Of a stretch of DNA of 52,163 nt, positions 3,184 to 46,091 are shown piece after piece (position 1 is the stretch's first letter; every line of letters starts with the position of its first letter). Under the pieces are notes generated by a model. It was not told the origin of the DNA, did not search any database, and worked only from the letters and a program-made list of their open reading frames with translations. A program made the position numbers and the translations under genes. Origin of the DNA: an uncultured Thermoplasmata archaeon (GTDB taxonomy: Archaea > Thermoplasmatota > Thermoplasmata > Halarchaeoplasmatales > Halarchaeoplasmataceae). The stretch spans positions 1 to 52,163 of the forward strand of contig CAYNOV010000001.1 of NCBI GenBank assembly GCA_964398905.1. Reading direction: 5' to 3'.

Positions 3184-4398
3184 ATGAGATTCTACGTCGA
3201 AGCCTACGGATGTACCATGAATCAAGGAGAAACGGAGATGATAGCGGAGTCTCTAGAAGATGAAGGACATGAACAAGTAGACTCTCTAGAGAAAGCGGAT
3301 AAAGTCCTGATAGGGACCTGCGTGGTGATCAAAAAAACGGAAGAAAGGATGAAGAGAAGGGTCGAGGAATTACAGCAGGAATGCTCTCAAGTCCTGGTTT
3401 CGGGCTGTCTTTCCTCTACCCGGAGGGAAGAAGTTGAAAGAAGATGTCCAGAACTAAATTTTATAACCCCGTCTGAAGTGGAGATGTCAAAAAAACCCTT
3501 GAAGTCTGAACATGATTCTGTTATAGGTACGATCCCTATATCTTCAGGCTGTTTGGGTGATTGTTCCTATTGTATAACTAAATTGGCTAGAGGTAGGATA
3601 AAAAGCAGATCGATCGAGGAAATAAGATCTAGGTTCGAAAACCTGTTATGTCGATCAACCAAAGAGATAAGACTAACGAGTCAAGATTCTGCCCTTTACG
3701 GAAAAGATATATCAACAGACCTTATCGAACTTTTAGACGAATTATTAAAGATCGAACGAGACTTTAAAATACGGATCGGAATGATGAACGTCGATACTCT
3801 ACAGCCGATACAGTCCGAGTTGATGGATATCATGGAAGACGAAAGGATCTATAAATTCCTACATCTTCCACTACAATCCGGTTCTAACAAGATATTGGAT
3901 AGGATGAATAGAAATTACAATGTAGAAAAGTGGAAAAAAACTGCGAAAGAATTCAGGAATAGATTTCCAGACCTTTCACTTTCTACCGATGTAATCGTTG
4001 GCTTTCCAGGAGAAACTGATGATGACTTCGAAAAGACTAAGGAAGCTGTAAAAGAGATCAAACCGGACGTCATCAACGTGACTAGGTTCAGTCCTCGTGA
4101 AGGTACTGAAGCCGCCCAGATGGAGGATCGAGTTCATTCTAGGAAGAAAAAGGAAAGGTCCAAAGAGATGACCGATCTTCGCTTCAAAATAAGTAGAGAG
4201 ATAAACGAAAAGTATGTTGATAGAAGAACCGACATATATATTCTAGAAGAGGGGAAGGAAAACTCTCTAAAAGGAAGGATGGACAACTACAAAGTAGTTG
4301 TCCTTAAAAACGTAAATAGCGAACTCATAGGAGAACGGAAAACAGTAAGGATAAAAAGAGCCGAAGACGTTTATCTTTTAGGAGAGATAGTGTCTTAA
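3184..4398 (+). CDS. Radical-SAM methylthiotransferase, MiaB/MtaB (CDKAL1-like archaeal type) with C-terminal TRAM-like domain
   Basis: N-terminal MTTase motif FYVEAYGCTMNQGETE. Radical-SAM CxxxCxxC motif in SSGCLGDCSYCITKLARG. C-terminal IGERKTVRIKRAEDVYLLGEIV. Confidence 0.85.
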   Translation: MRFYVEAYGCTMNQGETEMIAESLEDEGHEQVDSLEKADKVLIGTCVVIKKTEERMKRRVEELQQECSQVLVSGCLSSTRREEVERRCPELNFITPSEVEMSKKPLKSEHDSVIGTIPISSGCLGDCSYCITKLARGRIKSRSIEEIRSRFENLLCRSTKEIRLTSQDSALYGKDISTDLIELLDELLKIERDFKIRIGMMNVDTLQPIQSELMDIMEDERIYKFLHLPLQSGSNKILDRMNRNYNVEKWKKTAKEFRNRFPDLSLSTDVIVGFPGETDDDFEKTKEAVKEIKPDVINVTRFSPREGTEAAQMEDRVHSRKKKERSKEMTDLRFKISREINEKYVDRRTDIYILEEGKENSLKGRMDNYKVVVLKNVNSELIGERKTVRIKRAEDVYLLGEIVS

Positions 4399-5321: not shown

Positions 5322-8300
5322 TCAATTTCTAGCATCTATTATTACATCAACGACACCATTGATCTGGTCCAATTGATTATCTTCAAGTATATTTGGATTG
5401 ATAGGTATGACTAAGATCGAATCGTTTATAGCTACTTGATCTTTGATAGATTGTACCAGGTGAAGGACCGTTCTAAAATCATTATTGGTGATCAAATATT
5501 CTACTCCATTGAACAGGATCACGCCTCTATCTCTTGCTAAAAAGTTCTCCAATGCAAGACTCAATTTTTCCAGGCTCTTAGGTCTGATAACATCGTCTCT
5601 ATCTACATTGGAAAGCCATATCATATCCACGTCCTCTAGGTCGTACTCTTCTTTTATCTTATCAGGATAATCTCTAGTCACACAAAGTCCTTTTTCACCA
5701 GTTTCTAATATCTGTTTGAATATTTCAAAAGATCTCTCTGAATCTTCCTCTTCTATAAGATGAGTAGAGCATTTAGAGACACCTTCCGGTAGACGAGTTT
5801 TTCTCTTTTCTGTTTCTTCGATCTTTTTTTCTGAACTTTGATCTTTTACCACGTCCATGTGTTTATCCCTATAATGTCGTTCGACCCAACCCACTGTCTG
5901 ATAGGTCTTTTCACAATCCTCATGGGGACACAAATATTCTCCATCTTCTTCTTCGATATCGATGTCTAATCCTTCTTTTTCTCCAGATATATCGGTCTCT
6001 GGTTTTTCAATTTCTTCAGCTTTTTCTTCAGATCCTTCTTCCGCTTCTTCATCTTCCTTCAACTTTTCCTCAACCTGATCCTCCTCTTTTTTCTCTTCAA
6101 ATGAATTCACGACTTTTTCAGCACATCCTTCACCAAGACCTTCTATCTCTAAGAGTTCTTCTCTGGTCGCTTCAAAGAGGGAATCAACGAATGTGTACCC
6201 AGCCTGGTAAACCTCTAAACCTTTTTCTTCATCTAATCCACAAATATCGGTGAGATATCCGATGACTTCGGTCTTGTAGAGAGGATCGATACCGATCTCG
6301 ACCTCTTCTCCGTTAACGTCCCATCCCAAAATATATTGGCTTTTTTCAACCCCTCCAGATTTTAGCCTGAACTTTCTAGCACCTACTTCATCTCTGATTT
6401 CTTTCATTGTAGGCTCTAGAGCATCTAAAACATTATCAGTCCCGGAAATGTAAACATCTATTTCATCCTCATCTGCGATGTCCAAGTCCATTCGCATACT
6501 TTTGATCCTTAGTTCGATCTCTCTTGCAGTTTCCTCATCCCATATCTCATCCGAAACTCTTAGATCAACGAAGATCTCTTGATCATCGAGGTCTATCTTC
6601 TCAAAACCATCAGGCATCTCTCTGATAAAGTTCACCATAGACGGATCGATCTCTACGATCTGACCTTCGAGTCCCATCTCGAAGCCGCCTTTTTCCATCC
6701 CCTCTTTTATGTTCTCTGGTGACTTCTTCTCCAACATGGTCGCTATTTTACTTACCCAGTGTTGGTAAGATTTTCTTATAACGTCCCTCTTAGGTTCAGC
6801 TCTCAATATAGCTTCATCCCATCCTTCATCTGGATATAAAATTTCTATCTCTTTGACTTTTGCCTTCAATCTTATTATCCTTTCGAATTTTTCGGCTAAT
6901 TCAACAGCATCTTGACTTTTGCCTTTATAAACTATCCTTTGAAGGGGCCATATCTCTGGAAGGTCGGATCGCTTTTTGGTAAGGATTATCGAATCTATGA
7001 CTTTGCTTACTTCCGCCATCTCTTCTTCTAGAACTTCGTTATGCCGCTCCTCTTTATTTTCGGGCCAATCCTCCAAGAAAATACTGTCTTTATTACGATA
7101 GAATTCTCTATAGATATTTTCGGCAAGCATAGGGAAAACGGGAGCTATCAATTTAGAAAGGTCATCTAACAATTCGTAAAAAATGCACAACAGATCGAGT
7201 TCTTGATCCATCCTAGCTTCATCCAACCTGTCTCTTACTGAGATCATATATGTCTGAGCAAAATCATCGAGGACAAAATTTTGGAGTGAATCGATCATCT
7301 CTTCAAATCTGTAATTTGAATATGCTTTGGTGAGTTCTTCTTTGGTACTCTCCAATCTTGAAAGGATCCATTCATCTTCATAGTCGATTTCATCACTAAA
7401 GGAGTTCTCTTCTAAATCTTCTAAATCTAATTCAGATCCAGCTATAGACCTTCTTAAGAACACTTGTATGTTTTTCAGAACTTTTACCAATGGATGTGGA
7501 TATTCGATATCTTCTCCTTTTACATATCTCTTAGTCCATAAGGGTTTTTCCGAAAAAAGGTTACCTCTGAGAGAATCATAACCGTGTCTTTTTACTAGAC
7601 TGCTTACATCTTTGTGATCTATGCTACTGACTACGGTTCCAAGAGGAAGTACTTTTTCCGAGCTGTTCTCACCAAAAAGTGATAAAGATAGGACAACACT
7701 TTCATCTAACTGAGATCCGACCCTAGAATCATCCTCCACAAGGACCTTAGCTGGCCACCAAGATTGATGACCTTTTTCCTCACAAGGATATCCTATCTGA
7801 GCCCAAGGAGAGCAAGCCCGGATGAAAGAAGGATCGATGGTCTTTTCTGTCCAAGTCATAATTTTACCACAATCCGGACATCCTAATTGTATGTCTGGTG
7901 TTTCAAGTATTGTTAAAGGAAAATCTATATCTTCGGTGGATAGCTCTTCGAGATCAGAATGTTGTGAAGGTGTGAATATCGTTCCACAATCACATTTCCA
8001 CATGGGAAATGGATGTCCCCAGATATTGTCTCTTGTCAAAGGCCACTCTCCAAAAAACACATCTTTATTTGAAGGTTTTATGTTTTCGAGTTCGTTGTCA
8101 TAGTCAATACTTGACGAATCAAAAAACCATTCTCTTTTTGGATAAGTTATCAATCTGTTTTTACATGTAGAGCATCTCTCAACATCTTTTTTTGTTTCTG
8201 ATCGAGAGAGAAGCAAGCCTTTAGATTCAAGATCATCCAATATAACAGATTCGCTCTCAGCTGCTGAGATACCAGAATATTTGTTCATCCTAGGACCATC

Positions 8301-9371
8301 ATCAAAATGCCCATTCATCATGAGAGGATCGTATCGTGATAGATCTTCTTTCTCGGCGATCTTCCAGTGAAGTTTATCATAATAAGGTGTAAGAGGAACG
8401 ATGCCAGTTCCATCTAATCTGATATCGTTGGAAAGTATAACCTTTCCTAGTTTTCCATATTCCTCGGTTTTTATAGGTATCTTATCCCCCAACGGATATC
8501 TGTAGGTAAGCCCTTCAAGGGCTTCCCCTGTAACAACCTTTTGGACCTCGTAATCTTGAACCTGAGCGATCTCGAGCATATCTTCAATCGTTGATTTAAG
8601 AACTACAAGCTGTTCTGGATCTTCTTCCGAACCGATCTTCACGATGGCATATTCTTCATCGGGATGAACAACGATGTTTAAACTAGCAGGATACTTCCAC
8701 ATATCTTCTAGATAAGTCAAAAAATATCTATTTTTGCCACTAGCTAAAGGTATCTTAACTAACGCTTCTTCTTTTACTTCTGATGTAGATGTTACCTCGA
8801 TATCAGATAGAGAAGTTTTACATTCAGGACAAAATTTTAAAGGCTTTCTACGTTGGATCAAAAGATCCTTTTCATATAAGTTATCTATAGTCCACCATAT
8901 CGGGTCTAAGAAGTCTTTAGAGCGTGTTTGATATTCAAATTCATCGATCATCCAGACCCCTAATTTTTTTAATTCGTCTCGAGTAGATTCGATGTATCGT
9001 TCTGATCTATCATCGATTTCACTGAGCAGCTCTTTCTTATCCTCATCGTCTATCGTTTTAAGACATTCGATATCATCCATGTCTTTAATAGAAAGTTTTT
9101 CAACTTTGTTGTTCATCGATTCAAAACCCACACCATTTCTAACGTTATATCCACTGATACTGTAGAAGCGGGCGAGAGTATCATAAACCATGTTGATGAA
9201 TATCTCGTTCCACTCTAGGTGATCTTTAGTATTAACTGGCGCCCTTGGCAAATATACGTTCCTGCCTCCCTTTCTAAATTCACTGACCTCATCATCTATA
9301 TCTCCGGATCTCCAAAATTTGATGGTATCTTCTTCTGACTTCTGAAGTTTCAAGCGATCATCAAGGTCCAT
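5322..9371 (-). CDS. Class-Ia aminoacyl-tRNA-synthetase-like protein (IleRS/ValRS-type scaffold, degenerate catalytic motifs) fused to HhH, acidic linker, C2H2 zinc finger and C-terminal DUF835
   Basis: 1349 aa. Synthetase landmarks are retained: CPECKTSLSDIEV, ERCSTCKNRLITYPKREWFFD, WPLTRDNIWGHPFPMWKCDCG, HGYDSLRGNLF, EWILSRLESTKEE. The HIGH position reads DHLEW (nt 9210..9224) and the KMSKS position reads KDVSS (nt 7599..7613). HhH is LLEIEGLGEGCAEKVVNSF (about 6099..6200). The zinc finger is YLCPHEDCEKTYQTVGWVERHYRDKH (about 5853..5942). DUF835 is GLCVTRDYPDKIKE...VILFNGVEYLITNNDF (about 5325..5774). Confidence 0.7.
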   Translation of the reverse strand: MDLDDRLKLQKSEEDTIKFWRSGDIDDEVSEFRKGGRNVYLPRAPVNTKDHLEWNEIFINMVYDTLARFYSISGYNVRNGVGFESMNNKVEKLSIKDMDDIECLKTIDDEDKKELLSEIDDRSERYIESTRDELKKLGVWMIDEFEYQTRSKDFLDPIWWTIDNLYEKDLLIQRRKPLKFCPECKTSLSDIEVTSTSEVKEEALVKIPLASGKNRYFLTYLEDMWKYPASLNIVVHPDEEYAIVKIGSEEDPEQLVVLKSTIEDMLEIAQVQDYEVQKVVTGEALEGLTYRYPLGDKIPIKTEEYGKLGKVILSNDIRLDGTGIVPLTPYYDKLHWKIAEKEDLSRYDPLMMNGHFDDGPRMNKYSGISAAESESVILDDLESKGLLLSRSETKKDVERCSTCKNRLITYPKREWFFDSSSIDYDNELENIKPSNKDVFFGEWPLTRDNIWGHPFPMWKCDCGTIFTPSQHSDLEELSTEDIDFPLTILETPDIQLGCPDCGKIMTWTEKTIDPSFIRACSPWAQIGYPCEEKGHQSWWPAKVLVEDDSRVGSQLDESVVLSLSLFGENSSEKVLPLGTVVSSIDHKDVSSLVKRHGYDSLRGNLFSEKPLWTKRYVKGEDIEYPHPLVKVLKNIQVFLRRSIAGSELDLEDLEENSFSDEIDYEDEWILSRLESTKEELTKAYSNYRFEEMIDSLQNFVLDDFAQTYMISVRDRLDEARMDQELDLLCIFYELLDDLSKLIAPVFPMLAENIYREFYRNKDSIFLEDWPENKEERHNEVLEEEMAEVSKVIDSIILTKKRSDLPEIWPLQRIVYKGKSQDAVELAEKFERIIRLKAKVKEIEILYPDEGWDEAILRAEPKRDVIRKSYQHWVSKIATMLEKKSPENIKEGMEKGGFEMGLEGQIVEIDPSMVNFIREMPDGFEKIDLDDQEIFVDLRVSDEIWDEETAREIELRIKSMRMDLDIADEDEIDVYISGTDNVLDALEPTMKEIRDEVGARKFRLKSGGVEKSQYILGWDVNGEEVEIGIDPLYKTEVIGYLTDICGLDEEKGLEVYQAGYTFVDSLFEATREELLEIEGLGEGCAEKVVNSFEEKKEEDQVEEKLKEDEEAEEGSEEKAEEIEKPETDISGEKEGLDIDIEEEDGEYLCPHEDCEKTYQTVGWVERHYRDKHMDVVKDQSSEKKIEETEKRKTRLPEGVSKCSTHLIEEEDSERSFEIFKQILETGEKGLCVTRDYPDKIKEEYDLEDVDMIWLSNVDRDDVIRPKSLEKLSLALENFLARDRGVILFNGVEYLITNNDFRTVLHLVQSIKDQVAINDSILVIPINPNILEDNQLDQINGVVDVIIDARN

Positions 9372-9468
9372 GATATCCTAGTTACATATCAGTTTCTTCT
9401 ATATTAAATTAATTTTTATTTCGGACTGTACTCTAAAGTATATCGATTTTTTTGACCGAAGGATAGGT

Positions 9469-15374: not shown

Positions 15375-16973
15375 ATGATAGAAGATGAATTCAATTACGG
15401 GGATGCATACTTACTTAAGACTGAAGATCAAAGATATCCTATCGAAATTTTCAAAAACTTGATACAGTCAGAACCTGGAATGTATATCACCAGTGAAGAA
15501 CCAAGCGACTTGAGTTATAGACACGATCTTCACGGTATCAGCTTTGTCTGGCTTTCAGATCAGGATCATCGATCGGCTATAGGTCCGGATGAGATCAATT
15601 TACTGGGTCTGGCCATAAAAAGGTTCATCTCTCAGAAAGAAGGTGTAGTGTTGTTTGACGGGTTGGATTATCTCTTAAAACATAATCCAGCTCACACGGT
15701 GGTAAAATTCATCAATTCTATTGAGAGGCAGATCGACAAACATTCTTCTTTGCTCTTATTGGTTCTTGACAGATCCAGGTTACAAAAGAAAGATATAGAC
15801 ATCCTTACAGAAAATTTAAGTTTTAAGATAAAACATTTAGGACCTAAAGCTCAAAGAAGGAAAGGCAAGATAGACACGGAAGATAGGAGTTTGGTCCTTG
15901 AGGTCAGGGAGATGATGGATTTCCTAGAAGAGCAAGAAAAAAATCTGATGGAAGATAAAAGCCACAAAAACCTTATGGATACGTTAAAAGATGAAGGCTC
16001 AAATATAAAAAGTGTTAAAAACGCCATAGAAGAACTTAGAGAAGAAAATAGAGCTTTAAAAAACGAGTTAAAAAAGATGAAAATCCAGGATAGAGAGAAA
16101 ATAGATGAAAAGAGTTCTATGGAAAGTAAAATAGTAGAAGATGTCAGGACAACTATAGATGACGAAAAGAAAGGTATCCAAGAGCAAGTTGAGAAGATAG
16201 GGAAGAGTAAAAAGAAGAAAACCAATGAGAAATATGAAAAAGAAAGTGCAAGTGATTTTATGGGCACCCTTCTAGATTTGAAGGAAGAAGTCAACTCGCT
16301 GAGAAAAGAAGTCAAAGAGATAAAGAGTAGTGATCCTCAGGTCGATGATATCACTGAGAAAGAAGTAAAAAAAGATGATCTTGAAGAAAAAGTCTTAGAA
16401 GAAGGTAAGTTCAAGGAAGATCTTGCTATTTCAGATGAAAGAGGATTGATCCAAGAAGAAGGCCGGTTAAAAATAAAGGCCGATTCTGTAGTCGATGACG
16501 ATATACTTTCTGAAAACGACATCGAGATCGGGCGCAGGGCTAATATAAAAGGGTCGATCGAATCTCAAAATGATGTAAAACTTGAAGAAAACGCCATAGT
16601 CGAAGGAAATATAGTTTCCAAAACTGGTGAGGTCAGGATAGGAGAAAACTGTGAAATAAAGGGTGAAATAATAGGAAATCGTATTGTTATCTCTTCAGGT
16701 AGTGAGGTCAAAGAAATAAAGGCAGAAAAAGAGGTGATACTCGAAAAAAATACCAGTGCATTAGAAGTATATTGTCAAGGTGATATAAAGATCTCAAAGG
16801 ACGTCTATATCGACAGAGACATATATTACGGAGGAAAACTTATCGTTGAGGGTTCAGACACCTCTATAAAAGAAAAAGCAAAACGTATAGAAGGGATAAA
16901 AAGGTCTGAAAAAGACCGCGATAAACAAGAAAGCATCGTTGAAGAAAGATGGGCCTCCGAAAAAAATAATTGA
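15375..16973 (+). CDS. DUF835-domain / coiled-coil / bactofilin-like beta-helix protein
   Basis: An AGGTGG Shine-Dalgarno lies before the ATG. The N-terminus parallels the DUF835 tail of ORF 5322..9371: GMYITSEEPSDL...FVWLSDQD...VVLFDGLDYLLKHNPAHTVVKFINSIE. The middle is a K/E heptad-rich segment. The C-terminus (about 16497..16859) has repetitive short beta-strand units: IEIGRRANIKGSIESQNDVKLEENAIVEGNIVSKTGEVRIGENCEIKGEIIGNRIVISSGSEV. Confidence 0.6.
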   Translation: MIEDEFNYGDAYLLKTEDQRYPIEIFKNLIQSEPGMYITSEEPSDLSYRHDLHGISFVWLSDQDHRSAIGPDEINLLGLAIKRFISQKEGVVLFDGLDYLLKHNPAHTVVKFINSIERQIDKHSSLLLLVLDRSRLQKKDIDILTENLSFKIKHLGPKAQRRKGKIDTEDRSLVLEVREMMDFLEEQEKNLMEDKSHKNLMDTLKDEGSNIKSVKNAIEELREENRALKNELKKMKIQDREKIDEKSSMESKIVEDVRTTIDDEKKGIQEQVEKIGKSKKKKTNEKYEKESASDFMGTLLDLKEEVNSLRKEVKEIKSSDPQVDDITEKEVKKDDLEEKVLEEGKFKEDLAISDERGLIQEEGRLKIKADSVVDDDILSENDIEIGRRANIKGSIESQNDVKLEENAIVEGNIVSKTGEVRIGENCEIKGEIIGNRIVISSGSEVKEIKAEKEVILEKNTSALEVYCQGDIKISKDVYIDRDIYYGGKLIVEGSDTSIKEKAKRIEGIKRSEKDRDKQESIVEERWASEKNN

Positions 16974-19038: not shown

Positions 19039-20838
19039 TTGTTGGATGAGGACCAAACCATAGAAGCATTAAAATCTATGAAAAAGAGTGACTTCCAGAA
19101 TATCTGCTCGGAACTACTTGAAAATATGGGATTCGAAATTTCATCATTAGAGAACAGAGATGGGTCCTTGCTGATCGAAGGCGAGATCGAAAGAGGTGGG
19201 AGATCTCGAGAATATCTGATAAAATGTTGCAGAGATGAGGATGATCTAAAAGAAGAAGTGACTCAACTCCACGATATTTTAAGCGGAGATAAACACGGTC
19301 TGTATTTGACGACTAGTCTGAGAGATAAACCTATAGAAAAAACGGATCGCATAGAATTTGTTGGAGGTACACCCTTTTATAAATTATTAAAAAAGCTAAA
19401 TATGATATCAGCGATCGAAGATATCAAGAGTTCCAAAACTGACAAAGCGGACGTGATAGATGATGAAACAAATTTACAGGATGAAACTTCAAAGATCAAA
19501 AGTCTAGGGGAAAAAGGAAAAAAAGCCTATAAAGAGCAGGAATATCTCAAAGCTGTATCTTTTTTCGAAGAAGTCGTCGATATCGATCCTGAGGAAGAAG
19601 CCGCATGGAACAATAAGGCTCTTTGCCATCTAAAAATAGGCGATCACGAAAAGGCTATGGATTCTATAAAAAAGGCGATCTCAATCGATCCTGATTTTGA
19701 AGAGGCTTATCTTAACAAAGCCTTGATACACGAAAAAACAGGAGAGATAGAGGAGGCAAAAAGGTCAGCTGAAAAATTGATAGATTTAGATCCTAAAAAT
19801 CCAGAATATCACTACATCAAAGCTGCTTATCAGAAGAAGCTCGGTGAACTCGAAGAGGCTAAAATCTCTGTCCAAGAGGTTTTGGAGATAGATCCCGATT
19901 TCGAAAAAGCCAAAAAGATGCACGAAGAACTGGTCGAAGAAACAAAGGTGAGCGATTTTGGTGAAGCGAAAAAAGAACTTGAGAAAAGGATAGAAAGTCT
20001 TGAAGAAAAGAATCAGGAACTAGAAGAGAAAATAAAAGAGAAAGGATCTAAAATCGAGGAGTTGGAGAAACAGATCGATAGAGAAAAGGAGATAGCTGAA
20101 GCCAAGATAAAAGAGAAGGCAGACGAGATAAAGAAACTACAAAATCAAATACAAAAAGAAAAAGAATTGAAAAATGAAAAAGTCCAAGAGAAAGAAGAGA
20201 AAATAAAAGAACTGAAAAGCGAAATGGAAAATATCGAAAGTGTGACTAGTGATGATCTAGAAGAAAAAGAATCCAGGATAGAAGAATTAGAAGATCAACT
20301 TCAAGAAGAAAAAGAAATGAAAAATCAAGAGATTGAAAAAAAAGAGAAAAGGATAGAAGAATTGGAAAATCAACTTCAAGATAAGGGAGATGCAACTTCA
20401 GAGAAGATAAAAGAAAAAGAAGAAAAGATCGAAGAATTAGATGAGAAAGTAGAAGAGCTGGAATCTGAGATCTCAAATTTAGAAAAGAAGAAAAAGCAGA
20501 GCGAAAATAAATTCAAGATGGAAAAAAATAGGCTCCGAAACACAATAAAATTAAAACAAGAACGGATAAGTCATCTTCAAGAAGAAAATGAAGAGTTGAA
20601 AGAAAAACTCCAGAGATCTGAAAACGAAGAACCTTCTACTCAGAAAAAGAAAAAAGAAGCCGTTGAAGAATTTCAAAAACTGAAGAATGTCGGACCCGAA
20701 CTGGCAAACAGGATCTATGAATGTGGTTTTGAAGATATAGAAGAACTTAAACAAGCTTCTAAAAAAGAACTAAGTGAGATAAAAGGGATGGGAACTGCAT
20801 TGTCTGAAAAGATATATGAAAATCTACATGAGGATTAA
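19039..20838 (+). CDS. Multidomain protein: Mrr-like (PD-(D/E)xK-type) N-terminus, about 4 TPRs, long coiled coil, C-terminal (HhH)2
   Basis: TTG start 6 nt after an AAGGTGG Shine-Dalgarno. N-terminus: FQNICSELLENMGFEI...DGSLLIEGEIE...YLIKCC. TPRs: AWNNKALCHLKIGDHEKAMDSIKKAISIDPDFEEAYLNKALIHEKTGEIEEA. Then about 245 aa of E/K heptads with repeated IEELE.QLQ. C-terminus: FQKLKNVGPELANRIYECGF...LSEIKGMGTALSEKIYENL. Confidence 0.55.
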   Translation: MLDEDQTIEALKSMKKSDFQNICSELLENMGFEISSLENRDGSLLIEGEIERGGRSREYLIKCCRDEDDLKEEVTQLHDILSGDKHGLYLTTSLRDKPIEKTDRIEFVGGTPFYKLLKKLNMISAIEDIKSSKTDKADVIDDETNLQDETSKIKSLGEKGKKAYKEQEYLKAVSFFEEVVDIDPEEEAAWNNKALCHLKIGDHEKAMDSIKKAISIDPDFEEAYLNKALIHEKTGEIEEAKRSAEKLIDLDPKNPEYHYIKAAYQKKLGELEEAKISVQEVLEIDPDFEKAKKMHEELVEETKVSDFGEAKKELEKRIESLEEKNQELEEKIKEKGSKIEELEKQIDREKEIAEAKIKEKADEIKKLQNQIQKEKELKNEKVQEKEEKIKELKSEMENIESVTSDDLEEKESRIEELEDQLQEEKEMKNQEIEKKEKRIEELENQLQDKGDATSEKIKEKEEKIEELDEKVEELESEISNLEKKKKQSENKFKMEKNRLRNTIKLKQERISHLQEENEELKEKLQRSENEEPSTQKKKKEAVEEFQKLKNVGPELANRIYECGFEDIEELKQASKKELSEIKGMGTALSEKIYENLHED

Positions 20839-21364: not shown

Positions 21365-21988
21365 ATGGAAAACAAGCACGACAAACAAACAAAAATAGAA
21401 TTAAATGAGGATAATCTCTTTCTGTTGAGGGAGATCCTAGAAACAGCAGCTAGAAAAGCAGCAGAATCCATCTCTAAGATGTTGGGGACTCCAGTAGAGA
21501 CCGAAATATTGAACATCTATACTAATCCCTTAGAACTTGTTGAGAAAGAATTCGATCAAGAAAATTTGGGGATCATACTTTACTCTGAGCTTAAGGAAGG
21601 TGAAGGAGGGATAACCCTCTTCGTGATGGACGAAGATAGCGCTATAACTCTAGCTCAAAACCTTCTCGGTAAGAAAGACCAGGCTGAAGGCGAACTCGGT
21701 GAACAGGAGAGGAGCGCTCTTAGAGAAGTAGGAAATATACTACTCGGCAATTTTCTAGCAGAAGTAGGAGACTATTTCGATATCCCTATTCTACATACTC
21801 CTCCAGAATTAAAACATGATATGATAGGTGTTTACCTGGAGAATCTATTGACTTATTCCGAAAGTCTAGAGAACAGCGCCATAATTTCGGAAGTCAAGTT
21901 GAAGGCCAAAGGAGTCGGCGTAAAGGGGAGATACATACTCCTGCCCAGTGATGAACTCACAGAAGATTTTATCGATAATCTATTTTGA
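21365..21988 (+). CDS. cheC: CheC-family CheY-P phosphatase
   Basis: The second-half motif fits S-x3-E-x2-N-x22-P exactly: SALREVGNILLGNFLAEVGDYFDIPILHTPP. The first-half site is degenerate: LLREILETAARKAAESISKML. Confidence 0.8.
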   Translation: MENKHDKQTKIELNEDNLFLLREILETAARKAAESISKMLGTPVETEILNIYTNPLELVEKEFDQENLGIILYSELKEGEGGITLFVMDEDSAITLAQNLLGKKDQAEGELGEQERSALREVGNILLGNFLAEVGDYFDIPILHTPPELKHDMIGVYLENLLTYSESLENSAIISEVKLKAKGVGVKGRYILLPSDELTEDFIDNLF

Positions 21989-22058
21989 AGATGAAAAAAG
22001 ATCTGTATCTAAAAGATGGAGAAGGACCCATGATTATCACGATCAAGAGGTAATCCGC

Positions 22059-22514
22059 ATGACTGAAGAGATAGAACTCAGGATCGGAGAAATGGAAATA
22101 ACGAACTCTAAAGGAATCTTGACTGCTAGAGCTCTAGGCTCTTGCGTAGCTGTGGCCATCTATGATAGACAGAATGAAGTGGGCGGTATGGCACATGTTC
22201 TTCTAGGAAATGGTAAAAGAAAAAAAGAAGGAAGATCTTGTATGTATGCGGATGAGGCAGTTGAAAATTTGATCAAGGGTATAATCAGTAAAGGAGGACG
22301 TAGAAGGAATTTGAAAGCTAAGATTGCAGGGGGAGCAAGTATGTTCTCAAGTACTTCTGCGGGTAAGATCGGCAAAAAAAATGTGAAAACTGTCAGAAGA
22401 GAATTAGAGGATAGAAATATCCCTATCGAAGGAGAAGATATCGGGGGAACTCACGCTAGAAATGTCAGATTCAAGGTCGGTTCGATGTCTATGAAAGTGG
22501 AAGTCAAGATTTGA
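22059..22514 (+). CDS. cheD: Chemoreceptor glutamine deamidase CheD
   Basis: ALGSCVAVAIYD (catalytic Cys), GGMAHVLL, AKIAGGASMF, GGTHARNVRF. I chose the ATG at 22059, which is preceded by AAGAGG. The track start at 21948 would overlap cheC by 41 nt. Confidence 0.85.
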   Translation: MTEEIELRIGEMEITNSKGILTARALGSCVAVAIYDRQNEVGGMAHVLLGNGKRKKEGRSCMYADEAVENLIKGIISKGGRRRNLKAKIAGGASMFSSTSAGKIGKKNVKTVRRELEDRNIPIEGEDIGGTHARNVRFKVGSMSMKVEVKI

Positions 22515-22602
22515 ATTTTTCGCCTTTAAAATATTCAGAATGAAAAATTTTCAAAATGTTTAAATAATTCAAATATCTACTAAATATAAGGTTGTTTTAA
22601 TC

Positions 22603-24750
22603 ATGCAATTAAGATTACCCACATTATTAGGGACCATCATAGTGATGTTCGTTTTTATAGGGATCTGGTATATTTTCTTCAGAAAGAGCTTGGTTTTCAA
22701 ATTCGTTTTTCTTTTATTCGCTATCTCTGGAATGTATTATTACATAGGAAACGTCGTAGCGCCTATGGATCAGACCAGTAGACTGCTTATAATGATTCCG
22801 CTGAATGCATTTGTCGCTATTTCCCTGACTTATTACATCAAGAGATACATTGTTGGACCATTAAATGAGTTAAAAGAGAATTCAAAAAAAGTTGCAAAGG
22901 GCGATTTCAGTCAAGAGATAAATGTAGTTTCTAGTAGAGATGAAGTAGGTGAACTTTCCTCTGCCTTTGCTAAGATGAAAGATGACTTCTCTAACAGTAT
23001 TTTAAGGATACAAAAAACATTGAAGTCGCTTTCAAAAGGCAATCTCAACGAAAGAATAGATGTAGAGGATCTAGAGGGCGATTACAAAACGATGGCCATA
23101 ACCATCAATGAGAGTATAGAAGGTGTAGATAGGTCACTGAAGGAGATCAAAAGAGTGATGAATGATTTAGAAAAAGGTGATCTGCAAACCAGGATATCCG
23201 AAGAAGGGCTTGAAGGCGAGTACAAAAAGATGGGAAGATCTGTCAATCAAAGTATCGATGCTGTGGAAAATTCTATGGAAAAGATCAACGAAACGATGAA
23301 AGAAGTAGCTGAAGGAAAACTAGTTACTCGGATAAAAACAGAGGAGCTCGAGGGTGATTACAGAGAGATGGCTGAATCGGTTAACGAGAACATCGGAAAA
23401 GTGAAAGGGGTCATGAAAAATATAAAAGGTGTGATGAATTCCCTCGCATCTGGTGAACTGGACATAGAACTAGATTCTAGTGAAATGCAGGGAGATTATA
23501 AAGTGATGGCCTTATCTGTAAATCAGAGTATAAATACCATGAGCGATTCTTTAGATCAAATAAATAAAGTGATGAGAAACCTTGCTGAGGGAAAATTAGA
23601 TGTTGGGATCGAAACCGAAGAACTTTCTGGAGATTTTGAAGAGATGAGCGTATCGGTCAATGAAGCATTGACTATAATAAAAAATTCTATACAGCAGATC
23701 AAGGAAGTTATGGAGGCACTAGCGAACGGTGATCTGAATAAACAGATAGATGTGGAAGATTTAAACGGAGAGTATCTAGTGATCGGAGAGGCGGTGAATC
23801 AAAGCATCAAAAACACAAGGGAAAATATAAGCAGGTTGAAAGATGTTACCCGAGAGCTTGACGGATCATCAGAAACGTTAGCAGCTTCTGCTGAGGAGTT
23901 GAGAACTACGGCAGAAAACGTGGCTGAGTCCGTTCAAAACATATCTCAAGGCACATCTGAACAATTCAGGATGGCAGAAGATCTAGCAAGTACTGTCGAA
24001 GACTCCGCAGCTAATATGGAAGAAACATCAGCTTCTGCCGAGGATATAGCCGCTTCCGCGGAGGAAGTAGCCGCTCAAACAGACGAAGGTCAGAAGTTCG
24101 CTGAAGAGGCGTCTAATCAGGTCACGGAACTCAAAGAAATATTAGATAGAACCGCAGAAAAAGTTCAGCATCTAGATGAACAATCCAATCAGATAGGAGA
24201 AGTCATAGATACGATTTCAAATATAGCCGAACAAACTAACCTTCTTGCGCTCAATGCCTCTATCGAAGCAGCTAGAGCAGGAAAGCACGGTGAGGGCTTT
24301 GCTGTAGTTGCGGATTCAGTGAGGGAGCTAGCTGAAGAGACCCAAGTTGAGACGGAAAATATCAAGGAGATCATAGAAAGTACGCAGGAGAATGCGAAGG
24401 AAGTGGTCGAAAGTGTGAAGGCTGTTAGTGAAAAGGCCGAAAATGTAGATGGTGTCACCAAAGAGAATTTGAATGCTCTCGATCAGATAAGGGAGGCGAC
24501 AGATTCAGTTTCTAAATCCATACAGGAGATCTCTAGAGCTGTTGACGAGGTATCTGGAAAACTACAAGATTCAGCCACTAAAGTGAAATCAGTCACTGAG
24601 ATAGCCGATGAGACATCTGATCAAGCAGAATCTGTAGCCGCTGCAGCTGAAGAACAAAATGCTTCCGTTGAAGAACTGTCCACGAACGCTCAACAGCTTT
24701 CTACTTTAGCCGACAACTTATCAAGGTTGATAGATAAGTATGATCTCTGA
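22603..24750 (+). CDS. Methyl-accepting chemotaxis protein (transducer) with N-terminal TM bundle, HAMP plus six tandem HAMP-like units, and MCP signalling domain
   Basis: Three hydrophobic segments in aa 8-79 and no sizeable extracellular domain. HAMP: [21 protein letters not shown]...[13 protein letters not shown]. Highly conserved MCP tip: [38 protein letters not shown]. Confidence 0.9.
23020..23847 (+). repeat. Six in-frame tandem 138-nt (46-aa) HAMP-like repeat units inside the MCP gene
   Basis: Units start at aa 140, 186, 232, 278, 324 and 370, a strict 46-aa period. Consensus: M..L..G.L..RI..EELEGDY..MA.SVN.SI......L..I..V. Confidence 0.8.
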
Positions 24751-24844
24751 TCATCTTAAGCCAAAAGGTAAAAGTTTATTAAACCACTGATCGTTTCAGA
24801 GAAATGATGTCACTCGATGTTGAAAGTAGCTTTGAGGTGCTAAT

Positions 24845-25348
24845 ATGGGTATAAAGGAAGATATAGATTCTGATGAATCGATACAGATGGTTGTTTTCAG
24901 GGTAGGTGATGATTATCTTTCCTGCCCTATATCACAAGTTAGAGAGATAATACAACTCGAAGAAGTCACATCCGTACCTTCTACCCCTGATAAGATAAGA
25001 GGCATCATAAACAGGAGAGGAGAGATCATAACCGTCGTCGATCTTCCGAAGATATTAGGTCTTGATATCGAACTAGATGAAGAAGATTCTCAACTCATGA
25101 TCTTGTTTGACGAGCATATCGGTGTGATGGCTTCAGAAGTCACAGAGATACCCACTATTTCAACTGATGAGATAGAACCACCTTCAAAGGCACTAGAGAC
25201 ACCTGTCAATAAAAAATATCTCGAAGGTATAGTAAAACACGAAACTGAACTCATACTGTTGACGGATCTGATATCTATGGTGAAGAATCTCTCAGGCGAA
25301 GGTCTAAAGATGGCTGAAGAATTCAGGGATAAAGAACCTAAAGAATAA
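24845..25348 (+). CDS. cheW: Chemotaxis coupling protein CheW
   Basis: GAGGTG Shine-Dalgarno. MVVFRVGDDYLSCPISQVREII, IRGIINRRGEIITVVDLPKILG. Confidence 0.9.
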   Translation: MGIKEDIDSDESIQMVVFRVGDDYLSCPISQVREIIQLEEVTSVPSTPDKIRGIINRRGEIITVVDLPKILGLDIELDEEDSQLMILFDEHIGVMASEVTEIPTISTDEIEPPSKALETPVNKKYLEGIVKHETELILLTDLISMVKNLSGEGLKMAEEFRDKEPKE

Positions 25349-25406
25349 ATCGACTTTGATCACTCGACGATCAGTTTAATTTTATGCTCTCGTGAGGTGT
25401 TAGATA

Positions 25407-25934
25407 GTGGTTAACGATCTGCATGATAAAGATGATGGACCTAAAAAAGACAGAAATGAAGAGAATAAGAAGCCTCAAAACAAAAAAATGTTCACTGTTT
25501 TTGAGTTGGATAATGAAGAATATGCTATAGAGATAGATATGATGAATGAGATCATCAAAGATGTCAATATATCTAATGTACCTGGATCCTCAAAAAATGT
25601 ATTAGGAGCAACGAACTTGAGAGGCGAGATAATCCCTGTTATCGATCTAAAAAAGATATTAGGTTTAGAGAAAACGGGTGAGGAGGTCCAAAACACGATC
25701 ATCATACATATAGATGAAAAAAAATGGGCCGCGCCCGTAGACAAAATAAAAGATATAGTCTCTCCAAATACGGATCAACTTGTCGACCCCTCTAAAATAA
25801 CCAACCTAGACGGTAGAAGGCTTAGATGGATCATAAGACTTGAAAAAGGTCGTAGTGTTCGAGTGATAAATGCACAAAAGCTCCTGGAAGAGGAGGTCAA
25901 AGACGTAGATATAGAGAGCGAACAGAAAGAATAG
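25407..25934 (+). CDS. cheW: Second CheW-domain protein (K/E-rich N-terminal extension)
   Basis: GTG start 8 nt after GAGGTG. FTVFELDNEEYAIEIDMMNEII, VLGATNLRGEIIPVIDLKKILG. Confidence 0.8.
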   Translation: MVNDLHDKDDGPKKDRNEENKKPQNKKMFTVFELDNEEYAIEIDMMNEIIKDVNISNVPGSSKNVLGATNLRGEIIPVIDLKKILGLEKTGEEVQNTIIIHIDEKKWAAPVDKIKDIVSPNTDQLVDPSKITNLDGRRLRWIIRLEKGRSVRVINAQKLLEEEVKDVDIESEQKE

Positions 25935-25942
25935 GTGGATAT

Positions 25943-26767
25943 ATGGAAGGACTAGAAAACGATACTGATTCCCAGGGGTTTAAGAGGTTAAGAAAAGAGG
26001 TCTCAAGGAGAATAGGGGTAGATTATACGAATTACTCTAAATCACATCTGAGGAGAAGATTTCATGCAAGGATGAGAGTCGTAGAGAAAAGCAAATTCAA
26101 AGACTATCTAAATTACCTGAAACATAATGAAGACGAGATAGCTGAATTGAGAGATCTCCTCACGGTTAACGTTACTAAATTCAAGAGAGACAAAGATGTA
26201 TGGAAACTTATAGAGGATGAAGTCATACCACAGATGATCAAAAAAAAGGAGGAAGACATCTTAAAAAATATCAAAGTATGGTCTGCTGGATGTGCAACCG
26301 GGGAAGAACCTTATTCTCTAGCTATAAGTTACCTAAATAATAACCCTTCTGAGGATCTAAAATTTAAGGTGACGGCCACCGATCTCGACGGCGAAGCACT
26401 GGACTTCGCCAAAAAAGGCACCTACCCAGAAAAATCCGTGAAAAATTTATCTAAAAACGAAAAAAGAAAGTATTTTGACCTAAAAAATGAAAATTGGGTA
26501 TTAGACGATAAGGTCAAAGATCTCGTTGATTTCAAAGAGCTAGATATCTTTGAAACCTCCTTTACAAAAAAATTCGACTTGATCCTATGCAGAAATCTTA
26601 TGATCTATTTTAGCAACGAATCAAAAACTGAGCTGATGATGAGATTAGCAGAAAGTTTGAATAGAGGAGGTTTTTTGATATTGGGCATGGCTGAAAATTT
26701 AAGAGCACCGGCTAGGGATCATTTAGAAACTTACGATCTTAGAAAAAGGATATTTTTCAAGAAGTAG
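25943..26767 (+). CDS. cheR: Chemotaxis protein methyltransferase CheR
   Basis: SAM-binding VWSAGCATGEEPYSLAI and DLILCRNLMIYF. Confidence 0.9.
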   Translation: MEGLENDTDSQGFKRLRKEVSRRIGVDYTNYSKSHLRRRFHARMRVVEKSKFKDYLNYLKHNEDEIAELRDLLTVNVTKFKRDKDVWKLIEDEVIPQMIKKKEEDILKNIKVWSAGCATGEEPYSLAISYLNNNPSEDLKFKVTATDLDGEALDFAKKGTYPEKSVKNLSKNEKRKYFDLKNENWVLDDKVKDLVDFKELDIFETSFTKKFDLILCRNLMIYFSNESKTELMMRLAESLNRGGFLILGMAENLRAPARDHLETYDLRKRIFFKK

Positions 26768-28700
26768 ATCTTATCCAGTGTAGGGTATCTAGTATGATGG
26801 CGATTGTTCCGTCCCCCAGTATCGTTGCGCCCATGAAACCTCCAAGGTCTTGAAGATTTTCGGGGAGTGGTTTTATGACTATCTCTTTTTCGGTGATCAC
26901 CTCATCTATGACGAATCCAGCGGTTTTATCCTCGTTCGAGACTATGACTATTTTGAGTTTTTCATTTTCCTCCTTGATAGAGCCTATAGATTCGTCTTCG
27001 AACTGATGTTTCAAATAGATAAGAGGTAGATATTCTTCTCTCAATCTGATGAAATCATTTCCCTCGATCTTTTCGACTTCTTCAGGAGGTATCTGTGCGG
27101 TCTCAACGATATCTTCCAATGGGATAGCATAACTACCATCTCCAACTTCGATCAAGAATGCCTGAATTATAGCTGCGGAAGGAGGTAAAGTGAGTTTTAT
27201 AGTAGTACCTTCATCTTTCTCCGAACTGATGCTGACCTCTCCACCTAAGGAATCCATGGTCTTTTTGACAACCTCCATCCCTACACCTCTACCCGATATC
27301 TCGGTGACTTCGTCCTTTGTAGAAAAATGGGGATTGAAGATCAACATATATATTCCTTCATCGTCCATATCTTTTGCTTCTTTTTCATCTATAAGACCAT
27401 TTTCTAGCGCTTTTTCTTTTATCTTTGTTTTATCCAGACCTCTTCCATCATCAGACACCTTTATTACCACGTTCTCTTCCTGCTGTTTCGCCGCGACTTT
27501 CAGCCTACCGACGGGAGGTTTTCCTTTCTTCTTCCTCTCTTCTACAGGTTCGATACCATGATCTATGGCGTTCCTAAGCAAATGTACCATCGGGTCTGTG
27601 ATCCTATCTAGGATCGTTCTATCCAATTCTATGTCTTCTCCTTCCATCTCAAATTCTATCCTTTTATCATTCTGTTTTGCCAGATCCCTGACCATCCTTG
27701 GAAACCTTCGGAAAACGCTCTCGACCTCTGTCATCTTTAGCCCTAAAACGGATTCTCTCAACTCGTTCGTTATCCTGTCTATCCTATTGGTAACATTAGA
27801 TAGTCTATCAGAGTCTAATGAACGGGAAAGGTCTTCAAGTGAGCCTTTAGAGATGACGAGTTCACTTATCAGATTCATTACGTGTTCGATCTCCTGTAGA
27901 TCGACTTTCAATTTGTTAGAAGTCTCTATCTTTTTCTTTTTCGTCTTGACCTGTTTTTCTATATCATCTTTCTCTTCTTTTTCTTCATCTAAAAAATCGA
28001 TCCCTTTAACCCTATGTATCTTGATATCCGATCCTGCCGTTTTGTCAAGATCTTCCTCATCTAGGATCTTATCAGTTATGATGTAAAAGTTATACTGATC
28101 CGGATCGGCCTCTTCCGGATCCGGCCAAAAAAGTTCATATTCAAAATCGATCCTTTCTCTGATCTGTACGCCTCTAGCAGAAGGCATCTCTTCATCTTTA
28201 GAGATCTCCACTATACCTAAAGTCAATTCTCTTTCAGGTTCTTGTTCAAATAACTCTCTTACCTTTAAAGGGAGTTCTTGAAAGTTTTGAATACCATCAT
28301 ATTTATCATCGATGACCTCGTCTGACATATGATCAGTATCTCCACCTTCTAATATGGAGTCAAGATCATCTATCAGATCCTTTACATCCAACTCTTGTCC
28401 TTCAGCCAACAACTCAATCGTATCGACACATTGGAATAAGATATCAAAATGTCCCTCATTGATCTTTTCTTCTTCCTTCTTCAATTTATCGAAAAGCTCT
28501 TCCATCCTGTGGCTTATCTTCTGTATCCCCTCGTAACCCATCGTTCCGGCCATACCTTTAAGAGTATGACTCGCTCTGTATATCTCTGCGATGTGTTCAA
28601 GATCATCTGGAGAACTTTCTAAATCTAAAAGATGATCGTTCATCTTGGCGATCTGTTCCTTCGTCTCCTCCTCAAACATCTCTTGGAAGTCTTCACTCAT
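26757..28700 (-). CDS. cheA: Chemotaxis histidine kinase CheA
   Basis: HPt: RASHTLKGMAGTMGY. N box: HLLRNAIDHGIE. G1: VSDDGRGLD. G2: ISGRGVGMEVVKK. C-terminal CheW-like domain. Confidence 0.95.
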   Translation of the reverse strand: MSEDFQEMFEEETKEQIAKMNDHLLDLESSPDDLEHIAEIYRASHTLKGMAGTMGYEGIQKISHRMEELFDKLKKEEEKINEGHFDILFQCVDTIELLAEGQELDVKDLIDDLDSILEGGDTDHMSDEVIDDKYDGIQNFQELPLKVRELFEQEPERELTLGIVEISKDEEMPSARGVQIRERIDFEYELFWPDPEEADPDQYNFYIITDKILDEEDLDKTAGSDIKIHRVKGIDFLDEEKEEKDDIEKQVKTKKKKIETSNKLKVDLQEIEHVMNLISELVISKGSLEDLSRSLDSDRLSNVTNRIDRITNELRESVLGLKMTEVESVFRRFPRMVRDLAKQNDKRIEFEMEGEDIELDRTILDRITDPMVHLLRNAIDHGIEPVEERKKKGKPPVGRLKVAAKQQEENVVIKVSDDGRGLDKTKIKEKALENGLIDEKEAKDMDDEGIYMLIFNPHFSTKDEVTEISGRGVGMEVVKKTMDSLGGEVSISSEKDEGTTIKLTLPPSAAIIQAFLIEVGDGSYAIPLEDIVETAQIPPEEVEKIEGNDFIRLREEYLPLIYLKHQFEDESIGSIKEENEKLKIVIVSNEDKTAGFVIDEVITEKEIVIKPLPENLQDLGGFMGATILGDGTIAIILDTLHWIRSTS

Positions 28701-37857: not shown

Positions 37858-37860
37858 GAT

Positions 37861-45854: not shown

Positions 45855-46091
45855 TCACCCTACTTCTATTTCATCATCATCTTCAGTTATCTCCTTTATC
45901 TTTCCTTCAGCCTCTTCTAGCTTCTCTTCACAGTATTCGATCAATTCCGTCCCTTGTTGATAAAGGTCGATAGCTCTCTCTAAAGGGACTTTATTCCGTT
46001 CTAGTTTTTTATTTATCTTTTCCAGCCTTTCAAGGGCTTGTTCGAACCCCAACTCTTCAATATCTTCTATTTCCTCAAATTCTTCTGACAT
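45855..46091 (-). CDS. xseB: Exodeoxyribonuclease VII small subunit
   Basis: 78 aa. FEQALERLEKINKKLERNKVPLERAIDLYQQGTELIEYCEEKL. Its start overlaps the xseA 3' end by 25 nt. Confidence 0.8.
   Translation of the reverse strand: MSEEFEEIEDIEELGFEQALERLEKINKKLERNKVPLERAIDLYQQGTELIEYCEEKLEEAEGKIKEITEDDDEIEVG

Follow-up and report, generated by a model that had tools for sequence, protein, structure and literature searches.

Synthetase homologues that have given up their chemistry are known from several systems. In eukaryotes, the HisRS-like domain of GCN2 is a dead synthetase domain that acts as a tRNA-binding sensor and is fused to a signalling module. Among prokaryotes, HisZ and the second LeuRS of Sulfolobus are synthetase homologues without aminoacylation that are kept for another role beside the functional enzyme. 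To our knowledge, archaea are without RelA/SpoT-type and GCN2-type systems, and we know of no uncharged-tRNA sensing pathway established in archaea. Here, we analyse a gene of an uncultured Thermoplasmata archaeon (GenBank assembly GCA_964398905.1, contig CAYNOV010000001.1) that lies in a stretch of 52,163 nucleotides (nt), called the window in the following. It encodes a protein that resembles isoleucyl-tRNA synthetase (IleRS) and continues into a helix-hairpin-helix (HhH) module, an acidic linker and a C-terminal DUF835 domain. The sequence-only reading of this stretch had proposed a synthetase without chemistry, and the sequence evidence supports the protein as an IleRS-derived pseudoenzyme that is neither an artefact nor a decaying gene.

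Residues 1-1030 of the window protein are collinear with IleRS of the archaeal/eukaryote type. Pfam places tRNA-synt_1 at amino acids (aa) 17-583 (E 4e-25), Anticodon_1 at aa 666-811 (E 2e-28, 99.7 bits over the full model length), DUF5915 at aa 856-1028 (E 1.7e-11) and, as had been predicted for the C-terminus, DUF835 at aa 1209-1335 (PF05763, E 1e-29, 103.3 bits versus a cut-off of 33.1, model positions 3-130 of 136). The top NCBIfam model is ileS TIGR00392 over residues 5-825 (E 7.7e-80), with a score of 269.2 bits that stays below the equivalog cut-off of 621.4. The best match to a solved structure in HMMER is IleRS2 of Priestia megaterium (8c9d, E 8e-61, residues 9-985). The collinearity with a class Ia synthetase, originally put at the first ~1050 aa, is thus seen over ~1030 residues in Pfam, NCBIfam and the alignment to 8c9d. 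The assignment as IleRS/ValRS-like can be narrowed to IleRS, as the ValRS models score below ileS.

The register of the motifs was taken from the residue-by-residue HMMER alignment to 8c9d and from a MAFFT alignment with 25 canonical IleRS. In both alignments, the landmarks described earlier as retained are in register with canonical IleRS, namely CPECKTSLS, RCSTCKNRLITYPKREWFF, EWPLTRDNIWGHPFPMW, HGYDSLR and DEWILSRL. At the position of the HIGH motif the window protein reads EWNE, and the family consensus there, KD-x3-W-[DN]-[DE], is without histidine. GWDTHGLP has become GFESMNNK in both alignments, WTTTPWT has become YLEDMWK with loss of the Thr-rich peptide, GTGxVHxAPxxGxxD has become GTGIVPLTPYYDKLH with loss of the editing-site His and Asp, and DQTRGWF has become SRVGSQL. 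In most members GTG alone remains of the second editing motif, and His and Asp are gone. KMSKSKGNA faces a gap of ~9 residues after K587. All signature losses listed in the sequence-only reading are therefore found, with one correction: KMSKS is not substituted by KDVSS, but its loop is deleted. We compared 13 sequences, comprising the window protein, 10 orthologues from related genomes and two database proteins. The gap opposite KMSKSKGNA and the lack of all six signature motifs (HIGH, GWDxHG, the two CP1 editing motifs, DQxRGWF and KMSKS) are common to 13 of 13, and the profile alignment places no intact HIGH or KMSKS in register. The eight cysteines of the two zinc sites are identical in the same 13 sequences and invariant across 21 wider family members, one of them at ≥90%. 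New family-specific motifs such as KD-x3-W-D-E and G-x-D-P-x-N are conserved where the catalytic ones were, which suggests a new constraint and not simple decay. As judged from these alignments, aminoacylation and editing sites are dismantled in the subclade that includes the soda-lake halophilic Thermoplasmata. The positions of all elements are collected in Table 1.

Table 1. Elements of the IleRS-like gene in window coordinates.
Feature	Position	Strand	Remark
Whole gene, IleRS-like / HhH / acidic linker / DUF835 protein	5322..9371	-	Open reading frame (ORF) of 1349 aa
Catalytic Rossmann fold (aa 1-660) in degenerate form, with insertions CP1 and CP2	7392..9371	-	tRNA-synt_1 only 89 bits
HIGH-motif position, now E53-W-N-E56	9204..9215	-	HMMER alignment to 8c9d, MAFFT motif table
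CP1 editing-domain remnant (aa 201-400)	8172..8771	-	Both editing motifs lost (motif table)
Zinc sites of the Cys4 type, the first of C181/C184 plus C400/C403, the second of C460/C462 plus C498/C501	7869..8831	-	Invariant
Deleted KMSKS loop site (H586-K587 / D588-V589)	7605..7616	-	~9-residue gap opposite KMSKSKGNA
Anticodon-binding helical domain (aa 666-811), near-canonical	6939..7376	-	Anticodon_1 99.7 bits versus 125 in canonical P0149
IleRS C-terminal domain (DUF5915, aa 856-1028)	6288..6806	-	Least eroded body part; Pfam E 1.7e-11
HhH module (aa 1039-1097)	6081..6257	-	HHH_2, HHH_5 and HHH all sub-threshold in the window protein
Acidic low-complexity linker (aa 1101-1195)	5787..6071	-	Length and sequence variable
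C2H2-like zinc-finger insertion	5859..5936	-	Classical-pattern match
DUF835, inactivated KaiC/RecA-like domain	5367..5747	-	Pfam 103 bits; most conserved protein part

The erosion is unevenly distributed along the synthetase body. We compared the window protein with the canonical P0149 and with relatives that carry the same tail and are intact (P0138), partly eroded (P0136) or eroded (P0133) in their motifs. In this order, tRNA-synt_1 scores 419, 406, 331 and 117 bits, and falls to 89 bits in the window protein, while Anticodon_1 scores 125, 136, 111 and 96 bits, and 100 bits in the window protein. The latter keeps ~21% of the canonical score for tRNA-synt_1 and ~80% for Anticodon_1. We defined an identity ratio as the identity of the window protein to canonical IleRS divided by the identity of an intact fused protein to the same set. 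It amounts to 0.43 in both Rossmann halves, 0.54 in CP2, 0.63 in CP1 and 0.65 in the anticodon domain, and reaches 0.80 in the C-terminal domain. The Rossmann halves have diverged most and show the lowest ratios; erosion has thus mainly hit the chemistry and spared the modules on the anticodon side. Within the synthetase body, the parts that recognise tRNA are preserved best, consistent with the earlier proposal that a tRNA-binding scaffold is kept.

This pattern makes it very improbable that the protein is still an enzyme, either as a divergent active IleRS, possibly the only one of its genome, or as a free-standing trans-editing factor for mischarged tRNA(Ile). HIGH and KMSKS are needed for adenylate formation in all class I synthetases, and here both are gone, the KMSKS loop by deletion. 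The editing site has likewise lost its Thr-rich peptide, its His and its Asp, the ileS score of 269 is to be compared with a cut-off of 621, and the fastest divergence is found precisely in the Rossmann halves. An argument for an enzyme comes from tblastn searches with canonical IleRS queries, in which the pseudo-copy is the sole IleRS homologue in the window and in related loci of ~470 kb in total, which all represent the surroundings of this one locus. In addition, PMC10211241 includes cases of pseudoenzymes that stay active through relocated residues.

Within the family, identity is 76% for DUF835, 53% for the C-terminal domain (DUF5915), ~43% for the synthetase body and 21% for the acidic linker, which has a content of Asp and Glu of 28-54%. 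For the closest informative pair of loci (L002/L007, 80% aa identity), the Nei-Gojobori ratio of nonsynonymous to synonymous substitutions (dN/dS) is 0.08 overall, 0.078 in the dead catalytic half and 0.028 in DUF835; these values are rough because dS is high (~1.4), and pN/pS is likewise just 0.16. A dN/dS of ~0.05-0.08 indicates purifying selection that includes the dead catalytic half. We conclude that the fold-holding zinc sites, the anticodon domain, the C-terminal domain, the HhH module and above all DUF835 remain under purifying selection. These data effectively refute a decaying gene remnant without function. The orthologue is indeed split into two ORFs in two co-assembled metagenome-assembled genomes (MAGs; L008 904-4759 and L009 23-3908), either by a frameshift from an assembly error or by real pseudogenisation in those populations. 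Full-length ORFs are nevertheless present in 10 of 13 genome-derived loci, and the metagenomic contigs add 13 complete ones and one truncated by the contig end. Low dN/dS, invariant zinc cysteines and a DUF835 domain that is 76% identical across the family are likewise not expected from a remnant.

Five clusters share the architecture of the window protein at 42-99% identity in a word-index search of 5.8 billion proteins, and the next matches are ordinary IleRS at 25%. With one genome scanned per GTDB species, 13 MAGs at species level carry the gene; their labels are Thermoplasmata, Thermoplasmatota or 'Candidatus Natronoplasma', and in one case Aenigmatarchaeota. The orthologues of the genome-derived loci have lengths of 1293-1340 aa. 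Beyond this halophile family, a HMMER search with residues 1-1035 against 1.84 billion cluster representatives yields ~25 long proteins (1170-2330 aa) at 350-560 bits, and unfused canonical IleRS reach at most 297 bits with the sole exception of P0149 (374 bits). DUF835 is present in 19 and HHH_5 in 18 of the 21 long proteins tested. According to family hidden Markov models (HMMs), DUF835 forms the C-terminus of all DUF835-bearing proteins tested, with 1-3 HhH modules ahead of it in most. The DUF835 of these fusions is of the subtype of the window protein (45-55% identical). A named member is the 'isoleucine--tRNA ligase' of Ca. Sysuiplasma acidicola (MBX8637091.1, P0152), others come from several Thermoplasmatota MAGs, and two eroded members carry the name 'class I tRNA ligase family protein'.

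The motif table sorts these fusions into a series. Fully intact motifs of archaeal type (H[ILV]GT, GFDMHGLP, WTTTPWT, G-x-VH-x-APGHGPED, DQTRGWF and [PRQ]M[SH]KS) are found in P0138, P0140, P0143, P0146 and P0152. Partly eroded are P0136, P0137, P0144, P0145, P0148, P0150 and P0151, and fully eroded are P0129-P0135, P0139 and P0141 together with the halophile family. The score for the ileS equivalog TIGR00392 falls in the same order, from the intact P0146, P0138 and P0152 (970, 954 and 933 bits) over the partly eroded P0150 and P0136 (732 and 695 bits) to the eroded P0133 (331 bits) and the window protein. Partly eroded proteins with a source name on record are called 'isoleucine--tRNA ligase' or 'isoleucyl-tRNA synthetase', and KMSKS and/or editing residues are missing in them. 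Judged by these motifs, such names are likely over-annotations. This is a general annotation problem, as both partly eroded members scored (P0136 and P0150) pass the ileS cut-off despite missing KMSKS or editing residues.

In a bootstrapped neighbour-joining tree of 992 columns, which as a distance method with long branches is indicative only, all fused proteins and one unfused IleRS of 1065 aa, P0149, form a clade (86/100). The fully eroded forms are a nested clade within it (98/100), and the halophile family is a clade as well (95/100). Since most fusions are catalytically intact and the eroded forms are nested, the fusion is older than the loss of chemistry. These sequence comparisons lead us to conclude that the IleRS-(HhH)n-DUF835 fusion is old and widespread and that its dead form arose later, within one subclade. 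Metagenomes show the same range of states. Two DUF835 peptide patterns retrieve 364 relatives in JGI metagenomes, and motif states were counted for complete ORFs among the 80 best of these. Intact motifs are present in 34 ORFs, all non-acidic and none (0 of 34) from soda-lake sediment samples; three ORFs are partly eroded, and 15 are eroded, each of these 15 being acidic and from soda-lake sediment metagenomes (SL_8KL, SL_5KL and Ga0207421). One metagenomic fragment (L022) is identical to the window over the DUF835 segment. The architecture, for which the sequence-only reading knew no described protein, is not unique to the window protein: IleRS-(HhH)n-DUF835 is common in Thermoplasmatota, with at least 34 metagenomic loci and several named MAG proteins that have all catalytic motifs intact and exceed the ileS cut-off. 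These proteins are already in databases under automatic names and synthetase-derived pseudoenzymes are a known kind; in the literature searched, we found no paper that describes the fusion, intact or dead. Shorter proteins that extend from the anticodon domain through the C-terminal domain and HhH to DUF835 occur as well (L096 128-2284, P0153, P0169, P0172, P0214 and P0244). They may be fragments caused by contig ends or frameshifts, or genuine forms without the catalytic domain.

The DUF835 domain was modelled with AlphaFold2 (AF2) from a 15-sequence alignment. The model has a predicted local distance difference test (pLDDT) of 93.7 and a predicted TM-score (pTM) of 0.90, and it shows an alternating strand-helix fold. 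Foldseek finds 229 matches in the PDB at E ≤ 0.001, with FlaH/ArlH (4yds and 4wia), KaiC C1 (4tlb), PH0284 (2dr3) and RecA at the top, at TM-scores of 0.6-0.72 normalised to the query and sequence identities of 10-17%. By sequence profile, FlaH 4wia is the sole PDB match (E 0.33), and the NCBIfam match to ArlH is weak. The Walker A position is occupied by four residues, E-D-S-E, between strand 1 (13-18) and helix 1 (23-33), and GxxxxGK[ST] is found nowhere in the domain in the 15 aligned sequences. The model thus shows DUF835 as a predicted KaiC/ArlH/RecA fold without P-loop. This agrees with Galperin, Makarova and Koonin (2018, PMC5847659), who list DUF835 as 'iKaiC', an output domain of receiver (REC)-DUF835 response regulators in Methanomicrobia and Thermoplasmata, and describe it as a KaiC-superfamily ATPase domain that is divergent and possibly inactivated.

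Soda-lake sediment metagenomes also encode proteins of 750-770 aa (L039 546-2861 and L078 430-2679) whose C-terminal DUF835 is of the subtype found in the window protein (53% identical) and follows two CxxC...CxxC zinc ribbons, a low-complexity acidic stretch and a long region of helices. By its sequence, the subtype appears to be a reusable module in the soda-lake community. A second, more divergent DUF835 protein of 532 aa is encoded 6 kb from the target gene (window 15375-16973, + strand); its DUF835 lies at the N-terminus (aa 20-146, E 1.6e-17) and precedes a K/E-rich region that weakly matches bactofilin. The gene for this 532-aa protein is syntenic in L006 and L013, and partial ORFs of it lie at the edges of several soda-lake loci. 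A 160-aa DUF835 fragment gave no match in the index of 5.8 billion proteins, its parent protein included, and this index appears to miss short queries.

A scaffold or regulatory subunit that binds proteins instead of tRNA would also fit several observations: no part of the protein is more conserved than DUF835, this DUF835 subtype occurs on other, unrelated N-terminal modules as well, and new conserved motifs replaced the catalytic ones. Such a subunit could, for example, gather the genuine IleRS, other synthetases or EF1A in a complex or link them to an assembly of the DUF835/KaiC type, and the dead IleRS body would be no more than an interaction surface. Multi-synthetase complexes are known in archaea. 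We consider this rather unlikely: within the body, the anticodon-binding and C-terminal domains resemble canonical IleRS most, which a pure protein scaffold does not predict, and no partner was identified.

In the tail, the HhH module of the window protein reaches 21.4 and 22.2 bits (PF14520 and PF12826) versus a Pfam cut-off of 27. The homologous segment passes Pfam in relatives, with HHH_5 up to E 2.6e-38, and a family HMM of the segment matches relatives at E 1e-21 to 1e-31. A first AF2 model of residues 1031-1349 from a 5-sequence alignment is poor with a pLDDT of 48, and five helices are found over the HhH region at pLDDT 64-76. The HhH that had been read from the sequence is therefore clear as a homologous segment in relatives, but remains below the cut-off in the window protein itself. 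For the zinc finger, YLCPHEDCEKTYQTVGWVERHYRDKH fits the full classical C2H2 consensus, (F/Y)-x-C-x2-5-C-x3-(F/Y)-x5-hydrophobic-x2-H-x3-5-H, for which 200 six-frame shuffles yield 0 matches. The isolated segment has no Pfam match at E ≤ 0.01, the motif is absent from 12 of 12 close relatives examined (10 orthologues and two database proteins), and the insertion is confined to the window species and its 99%-identical sister MAG. What had been called a classical C2H2 finger is thus one by pattern, but does not belong to the conserved design. The region after the synthetase body takes varied small modules, C2H2-like here and a double zinc ribbon, RING-like or tetratricopeptide repeat (TPR) modules in other members. 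A second window protein with an appended HhH is a TPR-repeat protein with C-terminal HHH_5 (19039-20838, + strand, E 2.5e-10).

A tail of HhH, zinc finger and RecA-superfamily domain could alternatively indicate a DNA-directed, chromatin- or repair-associated protein with the IleRS body as a leftover. HhH modules are typical non-specific DNA binders, the HhH region has weak NCBIfam matches to the HhH segments of LigA and RadA, and the modelled DUF835 fold is RecA-like. The window contains the repair genes LigA, PolX, MPG and XseA, but these are 26-38 kb off and not syntenic with the target gene. We regard a role on DNA as improbable. Intact relatives with the same HhH and DUF835 tail are bona fide IleRS, so that the tail evolved in a translation context; in addition, the zinc finger is not conserved and a leftover of 1030 residues would not hold a dN/dS of 0.08.

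In the archaeal REC-DUF835 regulators, DUF835 serves as output module and presumably works through protein-protein contacts with assemblies of KaiC-family ATPases. For the window protein, we tentatively favour a non-catalytic tRNA-binding adaptor that would signal via its inactive KaiC-like DUF835 in a GCN2-like manner beside a working IleRS elsewhere, a proposal that is plausible from sequence and analogy, if short of probable as a whole. As a non-catalytic descendant of a Thermoplasmatota-specific IleRS-(HhH)n-DUF835 fusion, it would no longer perform tRNA charging and proofreading. It would still dock tRNA(Ile) or a tRNA-like RNA via the retained anticodon-recognition modules, with help of the HhH module. 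DUF835 would relay or anchor the binding state by contacting other proteins, either KaiC-family assemblies or further DUF835 proteins. This working mode would be analogous to that of the GCN2 HisRS-like domain, with a dead synthetase as reader of tRNA status wired to a signalling module, and the functional IleRS would be encoded elsewhere in the genome. By this analogy, the earlier suggestion of a tRNA or uncharged-tRNA sensor seems reasonable.

Several observations weigh against this adaptor. No partner protein of the window protein was identified, a KaiC-type ATPase is absent from the 52-kb window, and intact and eroded loci have no neighbour gene in common, a comparison that is blurred by spurious antisense ORFs in high-GC intact loci. 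With a net charge fraction of 0.10, the protein is strongly acidic, which is normal for the proteome and gives no pointer to RNA binding, and we infer the integrity of its tRNA-binding surface from sequence conservation alone. The monophyly of the eroded forms in the distance tree could partly be long-branch attraction. Moreover, every organism needs an IleRS, and the canonical enzyme that these genomes should have did not turn up in the window, in the related loci or among the acidic candidates followed, all of which that could be traced belong to other lineages.

The most acidic canonical matches served as seeds of this search. P0157 belongs to Nanohaloarchaeota, P0010 lies in the DPANN-like MAG CAYLXZ01 outside the MAGs carrying the family, and P0388 and P0407 are labelled 'Aenigmatarchaeota' and come from the MAGs JBKHHH01 and JBKHEG01, which are not family-carrying MAGs either. 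P0043 is a bacterial IleRS2, and the contig of P0426 fits the window poorly in its tetranucleotide profile (r 0.78 versus 0.87-0.99 for true relatives). Since no intact fused IleRS from soda-lake metagenomes is among the best 80 of the 364 DUF835 loci, the functional enzyme of the lineage is probably unfused; that it is of different origin is speculation. A wider version of the adaptor proposal, which we consider rather unlikely, is that Thermoplasmatota couple translation status to a KaiC-type signalling hub via IleRS itself. The inactive KaiC-like output domain would sit on the working enzyme in most lineages, and in the soda-lake lineage the enzyme part would have turned into a pure tRNA(Ile)-status sensor. 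If true, archaea would have in this sensor a counterpart to the HisRS-like domain of GCN2.

Where contigs are long enough, the halophile loci have a constant gene order of LpdA-like gene, target gene, PanE-like gene and MiaB-like gene, and this synteny is limited to the halophile clade. The neighbours of intact fusions are FEN1, an aconitase-X-like protein and ribulose-phosphate epimerase. The MiaB-like gene (window 3184-4398, + strand) codes for a radical-SAM methylthiotransferase (UPF0004, Radical_SAM and TRAM) of a tRNA-modification enzyme family. It lies two genes downstream of the target gene in convergent orientation; its position is kept in all halophile loci, not beside intact fused genes, and probably reflects synteny by descent. 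The locus from the MAG labelled Candidatus Aenigmatarchaeota (L011, JBKHKA010000006.1) has the gene order of the Thermoplasmata loci, its neighbour proteins are 50-81% identical to those of the window, and it correlates with the window at 0.91 in tetranucleotide composition; the label or binning of this MAG looks wrong. Upstream of the target gene, the intergenic region of 97 nt (window 9372-9468, - strand) contains an AT-rich stretch, aaataaaaattaatttaatata, ~25-45 nt ahead of the ATG. By its sequence, this stretch may represent a TATA-type archaeal promoter, and the target gene might then be transcribed separately.

Elsewhere in the window, a bacterial-type NAD-dependent DNA ligase LigA with BRCT adjoins a PolX-PHP polymerase (35815-39561, - strand). 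With a methylpurine glycosylase (35183-35812) and the exonuclease VII large subunit (46067-47320) nearby, they form a repair cluster in an archaeon. A chemotaxis cluster (21948-29766) comprises CheD, a methyl-accepting chemotaxis protein with multiple HAMP domains, two CheW, CheR, CheA and CheB. An S8 subtilase of 1408 aa with CARDB (39659-43885, + strand) is extremely acidic, with a net (D+E-K-R) fraction of 0.185 versus a window median of 0.067, and is probably secreted. PADLOC reports no defence system in the window, and Rfam and tRNA scans report no Rfam match and no tRNA gene in it.

With anticodon-reading parts and a signalling output domain apparently kept, the window protein is a concrete candidate for archaeal sensing of tRNA status or amino-acid shortage. 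Within a single clade, the series from intact over partly eroded to dead forms reveals which parts a class I synthetase can do without after catalysis is abandoned. The fusion also gives DUF835, or 'iKaiC', a defined partner module, which may aid in finding its binding partner.

Compared to IleRS of the IleRS2 type (8c9d, 1ile, 9w01; TIGR00392), the window protein shares ~1030 collinear residues, the Rossmann fold with CP1 and CP2, the two Cys4 sites, the helical anticodon-binding domain and the DUF5915 C-terminal domain. It differs by the lack of HIGH, KMSKS, the motifs of the amino-acid/ATP pocket and both editing motifs, and by its extra tail of 320 residues. With the IleRS-(HhH)n-DUF835 fusions it has the domain order, the DUF835 subtype and the clade in the IleRS tree in common, and relative to the intact fusions, which score 933-970 bits and have all motifs, it represents the fully eroded end of the series. 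ArlH/FlaH and KaiC (4yds, 4wia, 4tlb and 2dr3) are the best structural matches of the DUF835 model, but they bind ATP by a Walker A loop where DUF835 has a four-residue acidic loop. The REC-DUF835 regulators (PMC5847659) likewise place DUF835 at the C-terminus after an input module, which is a phospho-receiver domain in the regulators and a dead synthetase in the window protein. HisZ and the second LeuRS of Sulfolobus are neither derived from IleRS nor equipped with HhH and KaiC-like modules. GCN2 shares the placement of a catalytically dead synthetase domain on a signalling module, with tRNA binding only presumed for the window protein; it is eukaryotic, derives its dead domain from the class II HisRS and has a kinase as output.

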